64,000 bases of DNA from a bacterium. GTDB lineage: Bacteria > Patescibacteriota > Patescibacteriia > HK-STAS-PATE-3. This document shows, piece by piece, positions 3,683-64,000 of this stretch (within the stretch, counting starts at the first letter, position 1; each line of letters begins with the position of its first letter). The notes beneath the pieces are model-generated. The model was given only the letters and a program-made list of their open reading frames with translations. It searched no databases and had not been told where the DNA came from. The position numbers and the translations under genes were made by a program. Location: assembly GCA_043800725.1 (NCBI GenBank), contig JAZDMR010000011.1, positions 21,369-85,368 of the forward strand. The letters run 5' to 3'.

Positions 3683-6600
3683 CTAATTGTCTTTGGGTAG
3701 CTGAAGCTTGGCAACTATTTTTTGCAGGGTTTTTAGCCAGTCAACATCCAAGGCGTTCTTATCGATCTTCGCTTGGTCGCCCATAAAGGACCACTCGGTG
3801 GCGAATTTCTTCAGGATTTTCATGGTGTCAACAGAGACCTTGCTGGCGAATTTCAATAAAATTCTTTCTTTAGGCAAGCCATCTACAGAAATTTTTGAGG
3901 CGGTTAAATGGGTCAGGTCGGTATGCTGGGACAAAATTTTAATTTTTAAAACTTCAAATAAATTGCTTAGGCTTTTTGGCAAGTCAACGCCGCGGAACTC
4001 TTTGTTGATAAAAGCGGTCAAATCTTGTTCAGTAGTTAGACCCGCCAGCTGCTGATAAATCTTTAAACGTCTCGGCTCGCTAGGCACCAAAGTTTGCGGA
4101 ATACCGATTTCAACGGGCAGATCAATTTGTACGTCTCGCAGCGGTCTAGGGATTGCTCCGGTTTTGTATTCATCAATAGCTTGGGCCAGCAGCCTGGTAT
4201 ACAGGGCCAGACCAATAGCCGCAACCTTGCCGTGCTGTTCGCGGCCCAACAAGTTGCCGGTGCCCCTGATTTCCAGATCCCGGAGAGCGATTTGAAAACC
4301 AGAGCCGAGCTCTTTGGCTTCCAAAAGCGCTTGCAGGCGTTTACGGGCTGAATCATTCAGCTTGTTTGCGTGGTATAAGAAATAGGCATAAGCCTGGCGC
4401 TTACTGCGTCCGACCCGGCCCCTGAGCTGATATAATTGCGCCAGGCCGAACTTAGGCGAGTTATCAACGATTAGGGTATTTACATTAGGCAGGTCCAGTC
4501 CGCTTTCAATAATTGTCGAGCAAACCAGGAGGTTAGTTTTTTTATTGTCAAAATCGGACATTGAACGAGCCAAGGTTTCCTCGGCCATTTGCCCGTGAGC
4601 AATGCCGATTTTGGCTTGGGGCACCAGCTTTTGTAATCTTTGGGCGGCTAACTCGATTGTTTCCACATTATTATAGAGATAATAGATCTGGCCCTTGCGC
4701 TTAAGTTCCCGCTCAATTGCTTTAATGACAATTGCGTCTTCATAGGGCTTGATAATTGTTTCAATCGGTAAGCGCCCCTCGGGAGGCGTTTCGATAACGC
4801 TGATGTCTCTTAAGCCAGACAGAGCGAAATTCAGAGTGCGAGGAATAGGCGTGGCTGTCAGGGTCAAAATGTGGGCCTGGGTGCGCAAGCGCTTAAGTTG
4901 TTCCTTATGTCGCACGCCGAATCTCTGCTCCTCGTCGATAATAATCAGGCCTAAGTCGCGAAAGATGATATCCGGTGAAAGCAAGCGATGCGTGCCGATA
5001 ATAATATCAACATCGCGAGTGCGCAGTTTGCGGACCACCTCACCCTGTTCTTTATCGGAGCGAAAACGCGAAAGTATTTCTATTTTTACATTAATACCTT
5101 TAAGTCTTTGCTGAAAAGTATCATAGTGCTGCTGAGTTAAAATAGTAGTGGGCGAGAGCAAAGCGACTTGTTTGCCGTTCAGCACCGCTTTTAGGGCCGC
5201 CCGGATAGCCACTTCAGTTTTACCAAAACCTACGTCTCCGCAAACCAAGCGATCCATAGGCTTGCTCTTGGACAGATCTTCCATTACCTCATCGATCACG
5301 TGAGACTGGTCAGTAGTTAGCTCATAAGCAAATGAGTCAGCTAACTCACGCTCTTCCGGGAAAGTCTGGCTAAATGCCGCCGCTTTTGACGTATCGCGCT
5401 GAGCATAAAGCTGAAGCAGCTCCTGGGCGATTTTTGAGGCTTCTTCGCGTATTTTGTGGGTTATCTGATACCAATTGCTGCCGGACAAGCGATGGAGCTT
5501 CGGCTGGGCCAGGCCAAAATATTTAGTAATTTTTTCCGCAGATTCGACCGGCACAAAAAGCTTATCGCTCTCAGCATATTCAATCACAAAGTATTCTTTG
5601 GTGATGTCATCGATTTTATTTGAGGTCATGCCAGTAAACTGTCCAATGCCGTGATCTAAGTGAACAACGAAGTCGCCCATCCTGAGTTCAGCAATAAAAA
5701 CCGAAGCACTGACTCGCGGACCTTGTTTTTCCGGCTTAGCCTCAACTTTTTCGCCGAAGATGTCCGTGTCCGCAAACACACTTATTTTTTCCTGATCGTT
5801 GCGCCAACCGTAAATTATCTGTCCGGGCGCGGGTTTTAAAAAGGTGAGCAGATCAAGCTTTTTACTTTGAAACAGCTTGGCTAGAGAGTGCTTATGTTCA
5901 GTAATGATTTGGATTTCAAAACCGGTCTTTTGCAGTTTTTTAATATCATCAGTAAATTGGTTCAGGTGATTATGATAAAGTTTTTGAGATTGGAAATCAT
6001 AAGCCAGCGATTTCTGAGTGCCAAAGGTATAAAAAGTGATTTGTTTGAAGTGACTGAGCTGCTGAGAATATTTAGGCCAGTCTTGATCAAGCTCCTGAAA
6101 GCTCTCAGGATCAGAACTGATAACAATTGTTTTTTCTGAAGGCAGATAATCAAAAACTGAAGCGCTCATAGCGGTATTATTAAGCTTGATAGGCAGGATT
6201 GTAATAGTATTTTGAGCAGTTCCCGTACGTCGGGTAGTAATAGTAACTGGTTTGATTGAATCAATCTTAGAACCAACAAATTCCAGCCGTAATGGCTTAT
6301 TAAGCTGAGGTGAATATATATCCACAATACCCCCTCGCCGAGAATAGGTGCCTGGGCTGTCAGCTTGAGTTTCCTGTGCGTAGCCTATTTTTATGAGATG
6401 CTCTGCTAATCGGATTAAATCGTATTCTTGACCAGCATTAAGTTTCAAAGTAGCTTGCTGCAAAACGGTAGGCGAAGGAAAAGGATAATGCATAATTGGC
6501 AAAGACAGAATAGTAACTCCCGACCGGCCCTTGGCTAAGTTGGATAAAGCCTGAACATTGGAAGGCTCAAGATCAGTTATCGGTACTGGCTTCTTTAATA

Positions 6601-7355: not shown

Positions 7356-7431
7356 GCGCCGGTAGCTCAATGTTTGGTAGAGCGGCCGATTCTTAATCGG
7401 CAGGTTGTGGGATCGAGCCCCACCTGGCGCA
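7356..7431 (+). tRNA. tRNA-Lys(CTT)
   Basis: acceptor GCGCCGG/CTGGCGC, D-arm GCTC..GAGC, anticodon loop TTCTTAA, T-arm GTGGG-ATCGAGC-CCCAC, discriminator A, no encoded CCA. Confidence 0.85.
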
Positions 7432-7454
7432 CAGTTTATCATTACAGATCGGTT

Positions 7455-7533
7455 TCGGGGGGTGGAGTTGCGACTGGTACAACGTCAAGGCAGTCTGTCC
7501 TGACGACACTTGCCGAGCTCGAGGGCCCCCCGA
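7455..7533 (+). repeat. tRNA-like structured spacer element, copy 1 (TCGGGGGG...CCCCCCGA closing stem)
   Basis: about 75% identical to the element at 7674-7751; contains a D-arm-like GTTG-CGACTGGTA-CAAC hairpin. Confidence 0.6.
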
Positions 7534-7582
7534 TCTATCTTCTCCGAAGTTTCTACATGGAGTGGCGCTACAGTTTTAGAGG

Positions 7583-7668
7583 GCTGACGTAGCTCAGATG
7601 GTAGAGCATCGGCAAGTACTGGAAGGGAAAGCCGAGGGTCACGAGTTCGAGTCTCGTCGTCAGCTCCA
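7583..7668 (+). tRNA. tRNA of undetermined identity with a 17-nt anticodon loop (10-nt insertion)
   Basis: perfect acceptor (GCTGACG/CGTCAGC), D, anticodon-stem (TCGGC/GCCGA) and T arms plus encoded CCA, but the loop between the anticodon stem halves is AAGTACTGGAAGGGAAA. Confidence 0.55.
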
Positions 7669-7673
7669 GTTTG

Positions 7674-7751
7674 TCGGGGGCTAAAGTTACGACAGGTATA
7701 CCGTTGGGGCAATCTGCCCTGACGCCACTTGCCGAACTCGATGCCCCCCGA
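7674..7751 (+). repeat. tRNA-like structured spacer element, copy 2
   Basis: homologous to 7455-7533; TCGGGGG...CCCCCCGA closing stem. Confidence 0.6.
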
Positions 7752-7771
7752 CCAGATCTTTCAAAGTATTC

Positions 7772-7890
7772 GCGGGAATAGCTCAGTGGCTAGAGCGGCT
7801 GACTTTTAATCAGTAGGTTGGGGGTTCTCCGCCACCGAAAGTAGGAATAGTTGGCGGATCAGCCTCAAGCCGAGAGTCCCATTTCCCGTA
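7772..7890 (+). tRNA. tRNA-Lys(TTT) carrying a roughly 43-nt insertion in the T-arm region
   Basis: acceptor GCGGGAA paired with TTCCCGT (G1-U72), canonical D-arm and anticodon loop CTTTTAA; after GGGGGTTC a hairpin (TCCGCCA..TGGCGGA) insert precedes GAGTCCCA and the acceptor 3' strand. Confidence 0.45.
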
Positions 7891-56542: not shown

Positions 56543-56788
56543 GTGACGGAGGAGACAGCAATGAGCAGATTGTTCCGTATGGAACGAGGCAGTCGGGTTT
56601 TCGTTTCAGATCCCCCCAAAGAAGCTGGACTTTTTCTCACACCTGGTGACCAGGGTTGCCAGGTGAAGAACCTGGGAACGCAAGCCGTCAAAATTGAGGG
56701 AGGGGACGCAATAGCGTCCACGGAAGTAAGGACGATCCCCACCGAAACGAAGATGTGGGTTGGGGAAAGGCAATTCGTCCTCCAGTAG
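56543..56788 (+). CDS. hypothetical small protein
   Basis: 81-aa ORF; about 52% GC; RBS-like GGAGAAAG upstream. Confidence 0.3.
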   Translation: MTEETAMSRLFRMERGSRVFVSDPPKEAGLFLTPGDQGCQVKNLGTQAVKIEGGDAIASTEVRTIPTETKMWVGERQFVLQ

Positions 56789-56912: not shown

Positions 56913-58367
56913 GTGCCGAAATCCAAGGTTTTTTTAATAGTATTGGTATCAGTATTATTGGGCGTGGCCGGACAGCGCTGGCTTGGTTTAGAATACTGGC
57001 ATTGTTTATTGGTGATTGGAGCTGGTATTGTCATTCTCTTGGCAGAAAAAAGAGTGCTGGTTGTGGGTCTAGCACTAGCTGGTTTTGGCGTGGGCTTGCT
57101 TCGAGTAGCTATTGATCCGCCGTTACAAATAATTCCAGAAGGCAAAGGCGAGTTTGTGGGACGCGTTGTCCAGCCACCTGACATTCGGCGCGACCATATC
57201 AAATACACAATTCAAATAACAAATAACAAATCACAAAATACAAAAAATATTATTGAAGCTAGGGTTTTAGTTAAATCAAGTTTATACCCTGTCTATGACT
57301 TGGGCGATGTAATATCTTTTAATTGCTTTATCAGGCACCCAGGAGATATCGAGGGTTTTGCTTATGATAAGTATTTGGCTTTGAATGGCATAACCGCGAG
57401 TTGCTCCAGCTATTATCTGACCCTTGAGAAGTCAGGCAGCTGGTCCTGGGCGGGGATGCTTTTTCAGGGCAGGCAGTGGGTGAATGATCAGTTGAACAAA
57501 GTGTTACCTGAGCCTGAATCGTCGTTCACGTCAGGCTTATTAATAGGTGCCAGGCGCGGGCTTCCAGAATGGCTGATGGAGTCTTTTAATCGTACCGGCA
57601 CGACGCACTTGATCGCCTTGTCTGGTTTTAACATCACCATCATCACCAATATTATTATGCTGGTAGCTATTCAAGTGATTGGCAGGAAACGGGCTTTTTG
57701 GCTGGTGCTTGTTGCCGTATCTTTGTTTGTGATGTTTGTCGGCGGACAAGCTTCGATTGTCAGAGCCGGCATCATGGGCATGATCGCGTCTTTGGGTTTA
57801 CATATTGGTAGGCCCAGTCGAGGCTTAAACGCCTTGATTTTAAGCGGTGTTTTAATGGTTATAGCCAGCCCCAGGATTTTGTTGGATGATGTGGGATTCC
57901 AATTGTCATTTGCCGCTACCTTAGGATTGATTTCTTTATCCGGGCATGCAGAAAGTTTGTTTAGCTTTGTGCCGGAAAAGCTTGAGCTTAGGCAAACTCT
58001 ATCGGCCACGACGGCGGCCACTGTTTTTACTTTACCGATTATCTTAAGCACCTTTGGCAGGATTTCCCTGGTCAGCTTGCCCGTGAATTTATTGGTCCTG
58101 CCATTTATTCCCATTGCTATGGCTTTGGGCGTGTTAGGGGTGGTTGGCAGCTTATTCGGGGCCTCGGTTGGAATAGTGTTTGCCTTGCCTGCTTGGCTGG
58201 TATTAAGGCTGATTATAATGGTGGTGCAGTTTTTCAGCGTGCCGGATTGGGCGTTAATCAATTTTGGTAATGGTGTCGGATACTGGTCAATGGTTTTGTA
58301 TGTACCGATTTTCTTTTTTGTTGTTTGGTTAAACAAGCGATCAAGATTAATTTCCAAACCATTATGA
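56913..58367 (+). CDS. comEC: ComEC/Rec2 competence membrane channel, N-terminal (DUF4131 + Competence) part
   Basis: polytopic; 'HLIALSGFNITII' matches the ComEC competence-domain SG(L/F)H/N motif. Confidence 0.8.
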   Translation: MPKSKVFLIVLVSVLLGVAGQRWLGLEYWHCLLVIGAGIVILLAEKRVLVVGLALAGFGVGLLRVAIDPPLQIIPEGKGEFVGRVVQPPDIRRDHIKYTIQITNNKSQNTKNIIEARVLVKSSLYPVYDLGDVISFNCFIRHPGDIEGFAYDKYLALNGITASCSSYYLTLEKSGSWSWAGMLFQGRQWVNDQLNKVLPEPESSFTSGLLIGARRGLPEWLMESFNRTGTTHLIALSGFNITIITNIIMLVAIQVIGRKRAFWLVLVAVSLFVMFVGGQASIVRAGIMGMIASLGLHIGRPSRGLNALILSGVLMVIASPRILLDDVGFQLSFAATLGLISLSGHAESLFSFVPEKLELRQTLSATTAATVFTLPIILSTFGRISLVSLPVNLLVLPFIPIAMALGVLGVVGSLFGASVGIVFALPAWLVLRLIIMVVQFFSVPDWALINFGNGVGYWSMVLYVPIFFFVVWLNKRSRLISKPL

Positions 58368-59197
58368 AGTTGATTAAAATGTTCATGGCTGTTGTTTTAT
58401 TGGGAGCCGGGTTTTGGTTTTCCAGTACGTTTAGAACAATTGACAAGGTGCAGGTGACAACACTGGACGTGGGTCAAGGAGATGCAATTTTAATCAAGGC
58501 GCCGAACAATTTTGAAGTACTGATTGACAGCGGGCCGGACAATAAAGTAGTCGAGAAAGTCGGGGAGTATTTACCTTTTTTTGATCGTGAAATAGAGCTG
58601 GCAATATTGACTCATCCGGACGCCGACCATGTAAATGGTTTTGCTCAGCTTGGTAGTCGTTATCGCTTGAAAAATGTGGTTATTACAGGAGTGGCTCATT
58701 CCTTGCCTTCTTATATCGAATTTCTCAAGGTGATCAAAGAACAAGGAAGTCAAGTTTTTTATAATAACCCCGGACAGAAATTCGAGATTCCCGGAGGTGT
58801 TTTAACAATCCTGGCGCCGGAAGGAAATTATCTTGACAAAGAGGTTGACGACCAAAATGCCACGTCAATAGTGGCCAGACTAGACGTTGGAAGCAACTCG
58901 TTTCTTTTTACGGGAGACGCTGATATTGGCGAAGAAAAATGGCTGATTAATTCAGGACAAAATATTCAAGTAAATGTATTAAAAGTAGGGCATCATGGCT
59001 CCAAAAGCTCGACAAGCCCAGAGTTTGTCAAGGCAGTTAATCCGGATATTGGCTTGATTTCAGCAGGGCAAGATAATAAGTTTGGTCACCCTCACCAAGA
59101 GTTACTGGGTAGATTGGATAAGGCACTAATTCTCTCAACCGCTATTGACGGAGACATTTGTATTGAGGTGGACGAGGAAGGGCTGGGGAGGTGTTGA
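58325..59197 (+). CDS. ComEC-type metallo-beta-lactamase domain protein (ComEC C-terminal module as a separate ORF)
   Basis: 'LDVGQGDAILIK', 'ILTHPDADHVNGF', 'LKVGHHGSKSST'; overlaps the upstream ORF by 43 nt in a different frame. Confidence 0.8.
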   Translation: MVKQAIKINFQTIMKLIKMFMAVVLLGAGFWFSSTFRTIDKVQVTTLDVGQGDAILIKAPNNFEVLIDSGPDNKVVEKVGEYLPFFDREIELAILTHPDADHVNGFAQLGSRYRLKNVVITGVAHSLPSYIEFLKVIKEQGSQVFYNNPGQKFEIPGGVLTILAPEGNYLDKEVDDQNATSIVARLDVGSNSFLFTGDADIGEEKWLINSGQNIQVNVLKVGHHGSKSSTSPEFVKAVNPDIGLISAGQDNKFGHPHQELLGRLDKALILSTAIDGDICIEVDEEGLGRC

Positions 59198-59217
59198 ACA
59201 GCCCCTACCACCCCCGG

Positions 59218-59238
59218 CCCCTCCTTTGAAAGGAGGGG
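59218..59238 (+). terminator. hairpin CCCCTCC-TTTGAAA-GGAGGGG after the ComEC MBL ORF
   Basis: perfect 7-bp stem 21 nt past the stop; no U-tract. Confidence 0.35.
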
Positions 59239-59700
59239 AGGAGAATGCGAATGTTAGCCAAAATGGCTAAGAAAAGCGATTATTGGTCTTGACAGCCTTT
59301 AAATACTATGTTATTATGTGCTGTTACGCTAATAAAGTGCGAACCTTACAAACCATTGAGGAGAGAGCATTTACCACGGAAACCAAAGCCAGGTGTGGTA
59401 AATGTAGTTGGCTAATTTTTATTTAAGGTAGTGTTTTACTGCCTGCTCTCTGTTTTCATGAATTCTCGTGAATACCTCAAACATATAGAGCAGACAATAA
59501 CTCACTACCTTTTTATTTTCCGTAAAAATATGTAATGGAAAATAAATCTACGAAGCTTAAGCGAAGGAGGTTGTTTCCTTAAAAATCGGATTGAGATTAT
59601 CGATGGCCACAGCAATTAATTTTTAATGGGCCACTCATCACTCGATCCGACTTTTAGGGAAACAAGCCAGTCCTGAATTTAATTCAGGGACGGTACTGAC

Positions 59701-59832
59701 ATGGAGGGGGGAATCAAGCTGGCGGATATGATTGTCCAGGGTTGCGAACTCAGAGTTTTCATAAGAAGCCAATGGAGCAAGTGAACTTCGGTTCAAAACT
59801 TGCTCACCATCTCACCTCCATATCAGTGCTGA
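59701..59832 (+). repeat. roughly 110-130-nt structured noncoding element, copy 1
   Basis: closing helix TGGAGG/CCTCCA; internal GAGCAAG-TGAACTTCGGTTCA-AAACTTGCTC hairpin; anti-SD-like CACCTCC at the 3' end. Confidence 0.55.
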
Positions 59833-60092
59833 AACAAGAAAGGCTCAGACTTGAGGTATCCCACGGCGTCAGACTTTTGCCGGACGTTGTGGAAATAATT
59901 GATACCTCAAATCTGAACCGTTCTTCAAAACAACCCACCCCCAATCCTCACATGAAAGGCTCAAGCAAGATCATAGATCAAACTTGGGCCTCCTTCCCAA
60001 GCGCGACAGCATTGTTGCTCTTAGGAAGGAAGCTCGTTATACCTCGACCGAAATAAAATATCGGGTTACGCGAAAGATTCCTCTGTACTAAT

Positions 60093-60256
60093 ATGGAGGG
60101 GGTCCCCCTACGCCAAGGCTTCGGGGGACTAAGGAGAGTTAAGTTGGTGGATATGATTATTTCGGGTGCAAACTTGAAATTTTCATAAGAAGCCAGCGGA
60201 GCAAGTGAACTTCGGTTCAAAATTTGCTCACCATCTCACCTCCAGATTAGTGCTGA
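60093..60256 (+). repeat. roughly 110-130-nt structured noncoding element, copy 2
   Basis: about 85% identical core (60147-60256) to 59721-59832; same ATGGAGGGGG start and CACCTCCA end. Confidence 0.55.
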
Positions 60257-60394
60257 GAATTACGGAACTTTGACAATTATCTCCTTAAGTCGTTCTCATT
60301 AAATCATTGTAAACTCTCTTGATTCTTGTCGAATAAGTATAGAGTCGGAGAACGATTTTAGGAGGGCCCTGATTAAAGAATCGGGGCTATCAAT

Positions 60395-60652
60395 TTGCTT
60401 GTTAGTGGATATAAAAACAAATTTAACATTGAGGAGGGGCTTATGTCTTGGAAAAATGTTGGTATTTGGTTGGTAAAAGTCATCGCAGCCTTATGGATTG
60501 GGGCACTTATAATGTTTCTTTTCATCTTTCCGGATCTGCCGGATGATTGTTATCCGGTGTACCTATCCTTTTACTGGCCTTGGTTGGCGATATTCGCTGT
60601 GGTAACTGCATTCTTGCCCTGGCGGCGAATAGCACGGTTAGTATTGAGATAG
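60395..60652 (+). CDS. small membrane protein
   Basis: 85 aa, two TM; RBS GAGGAGGGG. Confidence 0.35.
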   Translation: MLVSGYKNKFNIEEGLMSWKNVGIWLVKVIAALWIGALIMFLFIFPDLPDDCYPVYLSFYWPWLAIFAVVTAFLPWRRIARLVLR

Positions 60653-60732
60653 TTGTACATCAATGGCGAATGAGGCGCCATAAGTTACTTCGGTAACACT
60701 TCTCACTTGCCATGAACCTCTATAGTTCGTGG

Positions 60733-60777
60733 CTTCCCCCGAGTTTCCCTTTAATCAAGAAGGGGTGCTCAGGGGAG
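60733..60777 (+). repeat. bracket-hairpin repeat, copy A (CTTCCCCCGAG..CCCTT-TAATCAAG-AAGGG..CTCAGGGGA)
   Basis: near-identical to copy B. Confidence 0.6.
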
Positions 60778-60882
60778 GATCAAGTACTGTTCTTTGCATT
60801 TTCCTCCACCTCCTTATGAAAGGCCGCTTAGGCATTATTATCTCAAAAAGTTTGAGATTCCAAAAAAAGTAAGGAGGAGAAA

Positions 60883-61419
60883 ATGTCTACATTTGTGTAT
60901 TGTCCGACTACTGGAGACCGTGTCTTCGCACAAAAGGACACGGAAGGAATAGTTGTTGTAAAATGGCAAAATGAATGCCGCCATGTGGTTGGTGGGGTCC
61001 ATTTTTACTTTAGTGCGGCTGAGCCAAAGAAACATTGGCGGAGTCGCGCGAAAGTTCTCGCCACGGCAATTATCAAAAACGCCTGTGGCATTGCTTGGGA
61101 TGAGTGTGGAGAAGTACACCTGATCGTTCCTCACTCGAAAGCCTGGGCAACCTTCGAAATTATGGGTGCCGCATCCCCTGACGGCAACCCTGACCATAAC
61201 AAGGTCGCCATGATTCATAATGGGGTGGCCTGGCCATTGTTCGGCGATGCTGGACAGTGGGAGGTCATCAGGGAACTCCGACCTTCTGAGGATGGAGTTG
61301 CTCTTTGGAAAAGGGAGGGCAATAGGGTAGAAGTTACCCTATCCGATTCTGAGGAGGCCGTGTACGCGGCAAATTGGCACATCGCTGAAGTTAGCGGTGG
61401 TGCGGAGGAAATAGCATAG
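60883..61419 (+). CDS. hypothetical protein (about 50% GC)
   Basis: strong RBS AAGGAGGAG; 178 aa; no motif. Confidence 0.45.
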   Translation: MSTFVYCPTTGDRVFAQKDTEGIVVVKWQNECRHVVGGVHFYFSAAEPKKHWRSRAKVLATAIIKNACGIAWDECGEVHLIVPHSKAWATFEIMGAASPDGNPDHNKVAMIHNGVAWPLFGDAGQWEVIRELRPSEDGVALWKREGNRVEVTLSDSEEAVYAANWHIAEVSGGAEEIA

Positions 61420-61464
61420 TAACTCGGGGAGCGTGAAATATTTAAATCAGTATTCACGTTCCCC

Positions 61465-61512
61465 ACTTCCCCCGAGTTTCCCTTTAATCAAGAAGGGGTG
61501 CTCAGGGGAAGT
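61465..61512 (+). repeat. bracket-hairpin repeat, copy B (ACTTCCCCCGAG...CTCAGGGGAAGT), preceded by the GGGGAGCGTGAA/TTCACGTTCCCC hairpin
   Basis: perfect outer stem; 46 nt after the upstream ORF stop. Confidence 0.6.
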
Positions 61513-61569
61513 GCGCACCTTTAAACTTTACGGCGACTGGCTGTCGATGAAGCCAAATGAGGAGGTGGT

Positions 61570-61785
61570 ATGATGTTTCCCTTTGATATGAGTGGGGTTT
61601 TTTTGATGATAGCAGCATTCGCCATGGTAATGGTAGGAGTTGTTCCTAATAAGGGCAGACCCACTGTGAGTCTTAAGGGAACGGTAATAATTATTATTGC
61701 CTGTCTGCTCTGCGCTCTCATTATGTTGGAGATGTTTGGGGTGATTGACTTACTTCCAAAGGGCTTCTCGTCAGACCCTTGGTAA
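61570..61785 (+). CDS. small membrane protein
   Basis: RBS GAGGAGGTGG; 71 aa, 2 TM. Confidence 0.4.
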   Translation: MMFPFDMSGVFLMIAAFAMVMVGVVPNKGRPTVSLKGTVIIIIACLLCALIMLEMFGVIDLLPKGFSSDPW

Positions 61786-61856
61786 ATAAAAAACCTAAAC
61801 AAGTCAGCACCATCGCTCTTTATTTAAAGATCCTTATAGTCGCGTGACTATAGGAT

Positions 61857-61902
61857 CTTCCCCTAAGTACCCCTTTGAATAAGAACGAGTGTTTGGGGGA
61901 AG
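61857..61902 (+). repeat. bracket-hairpin repeat, copy C (CTTCCCCTAAG...TTTGGGGGAAG), preceded by the GATCCTTATAGTC/GACTATAGGATC palindrome
   Basis: same bracket ends with a divergent interior. Confidence 0.5.
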
Positions 61903-62339
61903 TTCATTCAACAGTTCGGGGCAGGGATGCTTAAACGGAAGGGATTTCCGGCCTTTAACGAGGTAAGCGTTAAGTCCTAGTGACTGCAGGGGTTCTCCGC
62001 CTCCATATTTCTCAGAAATATTTCGGCGGATCCACCGTAGCAATACTGAGTTTTGCGGAGGCGGAGACTCCTCGCCGTCCTTGCCCTCGATTTCCCAGCA
62101 CCTGGACGCGATTGAAGGGTGCTGGAAGGGCCGCTATCGTAGGGATAGTTGGTTATAAGCCCTGAACTTTCTCGTTTTAAAATGCGAGATTGATTCAGGG
62201 CTTGTCCGTTACTCGTTTAGTATTATAACTATCGAGTAACGGACCTTTTCCCGAGTTCCGAATTCTAATTTCGGGATTCAGAAGAAGGAATGCCCTTTTA
62301 AACCAGGTGTAAAAAAACCGCTCAAGAGAAGGAGACGTC

Positions 62340-62618
62340 ATGACTTTGGAGGATGATTATATGAGGAATAAACTCATACAGTGGAAAAAAGAGTTCATCC
62401 AAGCTGGGGCCATGTGTTTTGGCGGGATGTCTATTTTTCCTGCCATTATTGCAGACTTAATTGCTGTAGTCATAGCAGTTTTGGTCTGGACTTGTTCTTC
62501 GGATAGGATCTTTCCTGTATGGGGTAAGTTTTCCCTGTGCAAGTTGGTGACCAATGCGATGGACCAATACGGGCCTCAATCGCAACCAATCACTATTGAT
62601 AAAGGGGGTGGATTATGA
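62340..62618 (+). CDS. hypothetical small protein
   Basis: RBS AGAAGGAGA; 92 aa with a hydrophobic core. Confidence 0.4.
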   Translation: MTLEDDYMRNKLIQWKKEFIQAGAMCFGGMSIFPAIIADLIAVVIAVLVWTCSSDRIFPVWGKFSLCKLVTNAMDQYGPQSQPITIDKGGGL

Positions 62619-62836
62619 AATCGAAAGAGCAGCCCGCCCCACTCACGGAGAGACACATCCCGTGGCTAATAGCACTGGTGACCCTTGGATTGGTCGAAAG
62701 TGTGATAGCTTTTTTTGGGGTTTTTGTCTACGTATTTTGGGGTTCGTTTCCTCGATGGAGCCAGTGGCCCGCTACGTTCCGAATCCTCAAAAAAGGTTTT
62801 GGGATAAGTCGTGAGAATGAGGAGGAGGTTTCATGA
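62615..62836 (+). CDS. small membrane protein
   Basis: ATGA overlap with the upstream ORF; 2 TM. Confidence 0.4.
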   Translation: MKSKEQPAPLTERHIPWLIALVTLGLVESVIAFFGVFVYVFWGSFPRWSQWPATFRILKKGFGISRENEEEVS

Positions 62837-63114
62837 GCAAGCTAAATCTGGTTTGTGTGGCAGTGGTACTTTTCTTGATTGTCGGCTCAACAAATGCCAA
62901 CGCTGGCATTCACATCCAGCGGAATGTGTCGGATATTGTCGAAGCAGGCGCGTTGTGGCTTCCGATTGATTCCTGTCGCGAAGGAATGGTCACGACTGTG
63001 ACCATTATAAACGACACCGACGAGATGTTCGAAGTCGTAGCCCTGGAGAGCAACACACATCAATCCGAGGTGATGAGCAACCAGGGCGAGACAGCCAAAA
63101 AATTACCATTTTAA
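62833..63114 (+). CDS. small secreted protein
   Basis: RBS GAGGAGGAGG; signal peptide; ATGA overlap with the upstream ORF. Confidence 0.45.
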   Translation: MSKLNLVCVAVVLFLIVGSTNANAGIHIQRNVSDIVEAGALWLPIDSCREGMVTTVTIINDTDEMFEVVALESNTHQSEVMSNQGETAKKLPF

Positions 63115-63405
63115 TTAGATGGTTCAATGCTCAGCGCCGGTACGAGGTTTGCGTTGGCTCCGAGCAATGGCCCTGTGTTGTAGGGTCGTTTGAGTATGCC
63201 AGACCGTAGTATTTTTTGGGAAACGAGAGAAGGATAGGATGTGGAACGGAGGTTCAATGTGAGGCAGCTGAACTAGGCCCGCAAGAAAAAAAGCGCATGG
63301 TTGGCGTAACCATGGACGCACAGGGGCCCATAATAAAAATACTGTGTTTTAAAAAATACGCACCCCGGGAGGAGACTCGAGCTTAAGGCTCATATTGTCT
63401 CCTCC

Positions 63406-63488
63406 CTTCCCCCGAGCTAATTAGCTTCTCAAGTCTCCACGGATCTGAGTCCGAGGATTCCTTCGAAGACTAATTAATTCAGGGGAAG
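63406..63488 (+). repeat. bracket-hairpin repeat, copy D (CTTCCCCCGAG ... CAGGGGAAG, 83 nt), preceded by the GGGAGGAGAC/GTCTCCTCCC hairpin
   Basis: same bracket ends with a longer variable interior. Confidence 0.5.
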
Positions 63489-63523
63489 TATGTTCTTTAA
63501 GTTATGAATCGCAAAAAGTCGGT

Positions 63524-63982
63524 GTGCTTTTAAAAAGAAACGAGAGAGGAGGAAAGGATATGGAAGCCGCACTTTTTATCCTAGCAATGATGGTGATGGT
63601 GCTGAAGGTTCTTGGTGGGATCGTTATCCCTGCTATTCTGATCTGTTGCTTGGGTGCATTACTTGGTCGGCTGATTCGGGTCCATAACAGCTTCTGGTTG
63701 AAACTATGGTTCATACCAGTTTTGGCGTTCAGTGCATTCATGTGTTGTTCGCACAGCCTGGGACTCATCTCCGACGGAAAGCAGATCGTGAGCTTGACCC
63801 TATTTGGATCGACCGCGTTGCTTTGGACCAGCTTCTTGTCAGTCTGGTTCAATTTACGTCTATTTCGCTGGATACCGGATACAGTCAGTTTCCAAGCACT
63901 GTTTTTAGGGAGTAGGATTCTGTCCCGGATGCCGGTTTCTGCGCAGCGGAAAGTGCTCCAGATCGCTGGAATACGTGGATGA
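63524..63982 (+). CDS. hypothetical membrane protein
   Basis: RBS GAGGAGGAAAGG; 152 aa, 4 TM. Confidence 0.45.
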   Translation: MLLKRNERGGKDMEAALFILAMMVMVLKVLGGIVIPAILICCLGALLGRLIRVHNSFWLKLWFIPVLAFSAFMCCSHSLGLISDGKQIVSLTLFGSTALLWTSFLSVWFNLRLFRWIPDTVSFQALFLGSRILSRMPVSAQRKVLQIAGIRG

Positions 63983-64000
63983 TCTTGTTTTCGCGGATAT

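Follow-up and report, generated by a model that had tools for sequence, protein, structure and literature searches.

A conserved, covarying RNA element in the noncoding region between a split comEC and a small-ORF array of a CPR bacterium

Genes and features of the locus

The region described here (59198-60394) is flanked by an MBL-fold gene, whose stop codon precedes it, and by an array of co-oriented small ORFs, the first of which follows it. Positions refer to the window, i.e. the whole stretch of DNA that was analysed, 64 kb in length. The upstream MBL gene encodes the C-terminal part of ComEC as a separate protein (Pfam Competence and Lactamase_B): comEC is split into a gene for the Competence/DUF4131 membrane part (56913-58367) and a gene for the MBL-fold part (58364-59197), which overlap by 4 nt. 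Because the same split was found in all relatives examined, it is by gene comparison a feature of the clade and not a frameshift error. Directly 5' of comEC there is an ORF of ~75 aa (56561-56788) which has a beta-rich, FHA-like pattern and no Pfam match; weakly conserved counterparts (~20-27% identity) occur in all relatives.

The following features were assigned, L-numbers denoting homologous loci from other genomes:

59218-59238, + strand: G+C-rich hairpin CCCCTCCTTTGAAAGGAGGGG without a U-tract, directly 3' of the MBL (ComEC C-terminal) stop codon, read from the sequence
59254-59270, no strand: operator-like palindrome TTAGCCAAAATGGCTAA, ~20 nt 5' of the -35 box, the sole perfect match in the window
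59289-59317, + strand: sigma-70-type promoter TTGACA-17-TATTAT with TGn before the -10 box, 11/12 matches
59322-59692, + strand: 5' part of the leader, from fold energy, inverted repeat I1 and similarity to L004 and L025 by eye
59690-59835, + strand: element A, copy 1, covariance-model score 117.8 bits, covariation, fold z = -4.4
59836-59925, + strand: element B, a long irregular hairpin GAGGUAUC.../...GAUACCUC, from inverted repeat I2 and alignment
59926-60081, + strand: lineage-specific spacer from element B to copy 2 with a hairpin at ~59986-60033, read from the sequence
60082-60259, + strand: element A, copy 2, covariance-model score 121.8 bits, fold z = -7.4, copy-to-copy comparison
60265-60277, + strand: single-stranded boxA-like motif GAACTTTGACAAT (GAACGTTGACAA in relatives), one per locus
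60281-60364, + strand: hairpin C, base UCUCC/GGAGG conserved and interior lineage-variable, from fold and alignment
60365-60387, + strand: hairpin D, GCCCUGAUU/AAUCGGGGC, with no further structured module between it and the first ORF, from the fold
60424-60652, + strand: first ORF of the array, a 76-aa membrane protein starting with ATG, SD GAGGAGG, from the ORF list, no Pfam match

The promoter is near consensus and is the best promoter match within 58.8-64 kb. The preliminary description of this DNA had placed it at 59308-59336; the promoter exists, but its position is 59289-59317. Every homologous locus has a perfect TTGACA, a spacer of 17 nt and an extended -10 box. Sequences of the type TTAGCCA...TGGCTAA are found at the same position in L004, L007, L010, L012, L013, L015 and L025, and TTAGCCAAAATGGCTAA is probably the binding site of a dimeric transcription factor. 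Comparison of the loci shows a predicted leader that would start at this conserved strong promoter with its operator-like palindrome and would run into the co-oriented small-ORF array.

The leader is highly structured and has a total length of ~1.1 kb. Its 5' part, ~370 nt from the promoter to copy 1, folds with an MFE of -123 kcal/mol versus -78 for shuffled sequence (z = -8.6) and is partly common to L004 and L025. Its hairpins are a long one at 59425-59511, another at 59586-59650 that is shared with L004, and a small one at 59670-59691 (GTCCTGAATT/AATTCAGGGAC), which had been called perfect and in fact carries a one-base bulge. At 59358-59367 there is an SD-like GAGGAGAGAG that is followed by neither a start codon nor an ORF and is kept in L004 and L025. 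The sequence CAUUGAGGAG that flanks it recurs at the true ribosome-binding site of the first ORF (60408-60417). The region as a whole is overlapped by several short ORFs. The one at 59742-60056, previously regarded as the only one, is just the longest of these (104 aa) and has no Pfam match.

Downstream, the window contains a cassette-like array of at least seven small + strand ORFs with strong GGAGG Shine-Dalgarno sites (60650-64000). The stretch from hairpin D to the first ORF gave no promoter-like match. The array ORFs are separated by imperfect palindromes of ~45-85 nt, CTTCCCCCGAG...CTCAGGGGAAG, located at 60733-60776, 61466-61509, 61857-61900, ~62246-62290 and 63406-63489; two copies are 100% identical, and within the 64 kb the motif is confined to this array. 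A Logan assembly of the same organism breaks within the first of these palindromes. Palindromes of this type (CTTCCCCCGAG...GGGGAAG) were not found in the arrays of relatives, where other intergenic hairpins of ~20 bp are present. The intergenic hairpins have no U-tracts, and the array contains no integrase and no attC-type core. For a 178-aa ORF of the array, exact look-up returned no match on record.

Fold, covariation and relatives of element A

The two copies of element A are in direct orientation. Both are real copies, and with the outer stem included they measure ~145 nt (copy 1) and ~178 nt (copy 2), so that the original estimate of roughly 110 nt was too short. Their identity, first put at about 85%, amounts to 83% in an alignment of the two to the covariance model (145 positions); for the 93-nt 3' part it is 88% and for the 35-nt 5' part 74%. 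Copy 2 has an additional 34-nt hairpin (~60101-60134) inserted between helices P1b and P1c. As had been described, TGGAGG/CCTCCA forms a closing helix and GAGCAAG...CTTGCTC a hairpin with a UUCG loop, and the string CTCACCTCCA is present. Cores of 47 nt and 21 nt occur exactly twice each in the 64-kb window, with none expected from shuffles, and the covariance model found no further copy there. Between copy 1 and copy 2 there are two fully compensatory pair differences and several wobble changes, and therefore both copies are maintained as folded RNAs. Each folds with much greater stability than shuffled sequence (z = -4.4 and -7.4).

The MBL protein places the source of the window, a MAG, among the CPR (Patescibacteria); the nearest relatives are ~52% identical and include Candidatus Nomurabacteria CP060223.1. 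When the DNA downstream of comEC-MBL was compared in these relatives, the whole noncoding unit proved to be conserved. It is syntenic in the window and in L004, L010, L012, L013, L015 and L025, i.e. in a Nomurabacteria-like CPR clade, and absent downstream of comEC-MBL in more distant CPR (~46% MBL identity). A sequence pattern derived from four lineages yielded further members from metagenomes (L016, L017, L018 and L021). Another metagenome match, L019, is a false positive, being GC-rich and not recognised by the covariance model, and L003 adds nothing as it is 100% identical and from the same organism.

For element A, 10 sequences from about 8 lineages with genomes of 34-60% GC were aligned with a covariance model (R1). 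All ten instances score 88-127 bits with R1 on the + strand and ~20 bits on the - strand. The consensus fold is a three-way junction of ~140 nt with a long, clamped P1 of ~20 bp. It comprises 45 pairs in 7 helices; in the model alignment 91.3% of the cells are paired, versus 34-50% when the partner column is shifted. Compensatory changes on both sides occur in 29 of the 45 pairs, and none of 500 shuffles reached the observed values. G-U pairs are invariant or frequent at columns 85:97, 5:225, 134:148 and 136:146, which indicates an RNA read from the + strand and not a DNA hairpin. These comparisons show element A to be a genuine conserved RNA domain of the + strand that folds independently. 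The preliminary description had also proposed a search of related genomes; the homologues in about 8 lineages and their strong covariation are the outcome. Its alternative of a decayed duplicate of a coding region is excluded, the changes being of the compensatory base-pairing kind and not codon-like.

Within P1, the outer helix P1a (~10 bp) is variable and covaries freely. The six inner pairs, P1b (UGGAGG/CCUCCA), are invariant in all ten sequences and are followed by P1c (GAGA/UCUC). P2 forms a long hairpin whose internal loops are conserved. The stem of P3 is capped by a cUUCGg loop and has a CAAAR bulge on its 3' side, and the junction region contains many invariant unpaired nucleotides. 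The CACCTCC in the element had been taken as anti-SD-like. CCUCC is indeed invariant. Its pairing partner is UGGAGG in every case, however, and the A that precedes it is a G in 2/10 sequences. A role of the CCUCC strand as a free anti-SD or 16S mimic is unlikely. As both strands are invariant, sequence-specific recognition or an alternative or tertiary contact is suggested, and P1b is probably a recognition surface or part of such a contact. A small upstream ORF at the start of P1b (AUG/UUG-GAG-GGG) was considered and rejected, since the frames are not conserved and that of L004 stops after 4 codons. Likewise, a template/variable repeat of a DGR does not fit, the differences between the copies not being adenine-specific.

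The other modules are less uniform. Element B includes an inner CYAY/RURG stem and an apical stem, and in five sequences (window, L004, L010, L012, L013) shows compensatory changes in 14/33 pairs. The boxA-like motif has the form GAAC(G/T)TTGACAA across loci and its place is always after the A/B modules and before hairpin C. Of the 10 positions specified in GYTCTTTAANA, the gamma-proteobacterial boxA consensus (PMC5725501), it agrees with 6-7. The motif and the hairpin after it accompany element A in five lineages. In L010 and L013, hairpin C retains its base and position and has entirely different interiors. Hairpin D is not a canonical terminator; L004, L010 and L012 have a hairpin at the same position. 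The tail of the leader folds with z = -3.7, and no recognisable intrinsic terminator follows any of the modules.

The order of the modules depends on the lineage: A-B in L010, L012 and L013, B-A in L004 and A-B-A in the window, which argues for autonomous modules. Element A occurs without B, boxA-like motif or C in L016, L017 and L018. In the AT-rich L016, L017 and L026 the unit is reduced to the promoter, 55 nt, element A and ~43 nt up to an SD-ATG, with nothing more; the encoded proteins are only ~39% identical to each other in these three. From the differing order and from these loci with only promoter and A, element A is the universal core of the unit and the other modules are accessory. 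Its distance to the first start codon ranges from 45 to ~600 nt, and in most loci other stable modules follow A over 170 to ~600 nt before the ORF. Element A is, on this comparative evidence, one module of a conserved, predicted leader unit of ~1.1 kb, to which the promoter noticed in the preliminary description also belongs. Downstream of the unit, all loci have co-oriented small ORFs that are not conserved and belong to no Pfam family; most of them code for membrane or secreted proteins. The arrays of L004 and L010 end in a pilin-like gene and a prepilin peptidase gene.

Two of the relatives have peculiarities of their own. L012 carries an IS200/IS605-type Y1 transposase gene (4195-4925) with the same hairpin repeat CCCGGTTGACCGTGGGAGGTCAACCGGCTG on both sides; its insertion site is 3' of the MBL gene and 5' of the operator/promoter, and the RNA unit is intact. 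L018 has a ~100-nt segment after element A (985-1085) with a T-arm-like GTGGTTCAACTCCAC. Reading this segment as a tRNA was rejected, as ARAGORN makes no tRNA call.

Comparison with known RNA families

An Rfam scan had been proposed in the preliminary description. With Rfam 15 at the gathering threshold, the whole window gave only 4 tRNAs. In the region itself, only sub-threshold matches appeared at E<=10; these, i.e. weak matches to SmY (21.8 versus a cutoff of 39), RT-14 and miRNA models, are attributed to chance. The miRNA-model match lies in the spacer 59926-60081, where it is the sole database match, and spuriously reflects the hairpin there. Among the seven homologous loci, only a tRNA was found at E<=0.5. 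RNase P, tmRNA, SRP and 6S RNA gave no Rfam signal, and the raiA model had no match even at E<=10. The unit had no match in phage and plasmid BLAST searches or in viral contigs. The exact 20-mer TTGCTCACCATCTCACCTCC occurs in genome contigs of Porphyromonas and Desulfosporosinus, by chance and without flanking similarity. The structured-RNA discovery literature that was searched holds no counterpart.

Hence neither the element in the window nor its homologues match an Rfam family. The earlier proposal of a novel small RNA or tandem cis-regulatory element gains support from these scans together with the conservation and covariation in relatives. Element A represents a new family among the structured leader RNAs or ncRNAs of bacteria, and R1 and the alignment suffice to define it.

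Possible roles of the leader

CPR bacteria (Patescibacteria) have tiny genomes with little noncoding DNA, and to our knowledge almost no regulatory RNAs have been described in them. That this clade keeps up to 1.1 kb of structured, promoter-driven noncoding sequence between comEC and fast-changing arrays of surface-protein genes points to an important, so far undescribed RNA function in the control or diversification of the surface of these episymbionts. What sets the unit apart is the modular shuffling of its domains, the length of the leader in a streamlined CPR genome, the fixed synteny with comEC and the position at the head of a cassette-like array.

A possible interpretation, which we favour tentatively, is that element A is a cis-acting leader domain, carried on one transcript with the array and acting at a distance by factor docking in an antitermination-like manner. 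Leader and array would be transcribed as one RNA, on which element A would act in cis. It would serve as docking site for RNA polymerase, Nus-type factors or a dedicated RNA-binding protein, and the docked factor could condition elongation and read-through; alternatively, it could act on the processing and stability of the array RNA, which would be long and punctuated by hairpins. Action at a distance is suggested by the clamped P1 of ~20 bp, the lack of a conserved terminator or SD-sequestering partner, the variable distance to the ORFs and the nut-like context. In the 10 instances, no conserved sequence that could compete for P1 was found downstream of element A. As to the specific mechanism, an action resembling processive antitermination would be preferred over a local, metabolite-controlled switch because the boxA-like motif with its hairpin is nut-like and because the array is punctuated by hairpins. 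Lambda nut and the boxA-boxB of rrn operons, HK022 put and the Bacillus EAR are, as here, promoter-proximal folded RNAs that head long transcripts. Such antitermination signals act at a distance without a local expression platform, and here too a boxA-like motif is followed by a hairpin. However, the fold of element A resembles neither the two hairpins of put nor the pseudoknotted EAR, and no Rfam family matches, EAR included. It also speaks against the at-a-distance reading that the nut-like context is not universal, as L016, L017 and L018 show, that the agreement with boxA is partial, and that the intergenic hairpins are devoid of U-tracts.

Instead, element A could be an orphan riboswitch aptamer, occurring in the window as a tandem pair, which would sense a small molecule or second messenger and control the surface-protein genes downstream. 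The conserved, covarying fold in a 5'UTR (43 nt before the SD-ATG in L016, L017 and L026) and the three-way junction with its many invariant unpaired nucleotides would suit an aptamer. Tandem copies, better known among riboswitches than among antitermination RNAs, are an established arrangement in several riboswitch classes. The likeness is closest to orphan and tandem riboswitches such as tandem glycine and c-di-GMP-I upstream of pilus, competence and surface genes, which share with element A the conserved junction in a 5'UTR, the occasional tandem copies and the genes for surface or secreted proteins downstream. In the predicted folds of L016 and L017, moreover, a 5' CCCUUU pairs with the SD around element A. 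This helix is weak, yet it could be an expression platform, and a translational switch stays as a rival for this reason. The classic local riboswitch is nevertheless disfavoured: a P1 of ~20 bp is very long for a switching helix, and neither a conserved competitor for it nor a conserved terminator or anti-SD partner was found downstream of A in the 10 instances. The ORF lies at a large and variable distance with other stable modules in between in most loci, and the downstream genes are an incoherent set of unrelated small proteins with no common function. No known riboswitch covariance model matches either, and we consider this reading unlikely.

Similarly unlikely, if plausible, is that the whole region, or an excised element A, is a stable trans-acting ncRNA or RNP scaffold that merely neighbours comEC and the array. 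Stable-RNA genes typically have a promoter such as this one, strictly conserved and near consensus. The modules are clamped and of high stability (z down to -8.6), and the invariant P1b suggests sequence-specific recognition. There is also a positional analogy with the raiA motif RNA, a trans-acting RNA that in 74% of cases is found 3' of comFC, a competence gene (PMC10861870). Like element A, the raiA motif RNA (ModT, RF03072) is a complex, covarying ncRNA with many invariant nucleotides and unexplained biochemistry; both lie directly 3' of a DNA-uptake gene (comFC for raiA, comEC here), and both are probably strongly expressed. The two differ in architecture (~200 nt with P1-P8 and two pseudoknots for raiA, a three-way junction of ~140 nt for element A), in distribution and transcript type (an independent trans transcript in Bacillota and Actinomycetota versus a CPR element embedded in a leader that runs into ORFs) and in their neighbours: raiA lies between comFC and the raiA gene, whereas here comEC-MBL is upstream and no raiA gene is downstream. 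A match to the raiA model is lacking, too. A free RNA is further at odds with the absence of a recognisable intrinsic terminator after any module, with the mere ~43 nt from A to the start codon in L016, L017 and L026, and with the array having no promoter of its own that could be found.

A doubtful alternative is that the modules are devices of RNA processing or stability, i.e. RNase III-type substrates, 5' stabilisers or shields of the untranslated leader against Rho, which would also set the ends of the mRNA. Long near-perfect duplexes are found in P1 of element A, in B and C and in the intergenic palindromes, and an untranslated leader of 1.1 kb would otherwise be exposed to Rho and RNases. 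This leaves unexplained why the junction nucleotides and P1b are invariant across genomes of 34-60% GC, and conservation this strong is rare for simple stabilisers. Far less probable still, and largely refuted, is a DNA-level element, be it a MITE- or REP-like mobile repeat or a site like attI or attC. The 15-nt terminal inverted repeats are MITE-like, element A heads a cassette-like array with palindromic boundaries, and a Y1 transposase is inserted nearby in L012. Against a mobile repeat stand the number of copies (just two, adjacent, in 64 kb and one per relative), the syntenic position across divergent genomes, the compensatory changes and the many G-U pairs, in place of which the opposite strand would have C-A mismatches. 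At element A no target-site duplication can be seen, no integrase ORF adjoins the region, attI/attC core sites (RYYYAAC/GTTRRRY) are missing, and nothing matches in phage, plasmid or viral collections. What remains is a likeness to the Pc/attI platform of integrons, in which a conserved promoter unit heads variable, co-oriented, promoterless short ORFs with palindromic separators; the difference is that here there is no integrase and no attC core, and that what is conserved is an RNA fold containing G-U pairs, not a recombination site.

In contrast to the cis-acting, antitermination-like leader domain that we favour, element A might conceivably, though improbably, be the core, for catalysis or recognition, of a new class of CPR ncRNA that is large and modular and is linked to DNA uptake by ComEC and to the cassette array. 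It could, for example, be an RNP or ribozyme with a part in acquiring, processing or expressing the palindrome-bounded cassettes, which would make it an integrase-less, RNA-centred analogue of the integron platform. With OLE, GOLLD, ROOL and HEARO the unit has in common that it is a multi-domain, highly structured noncoding region of ~0.4-1.1 kb. Unlike in these RNAs, the number and order of the modules vary, only A is universal, and no model matches; moreover, the unit is probably an mRNA leader and not a free RNA as they are.

Elsewhere in the window, three of the tRNA matches are clustered at 7356-7833. The third of these (7772-7833) is short (62 nt), scores just 37 bits and may be a truncated or atypical tRNA.
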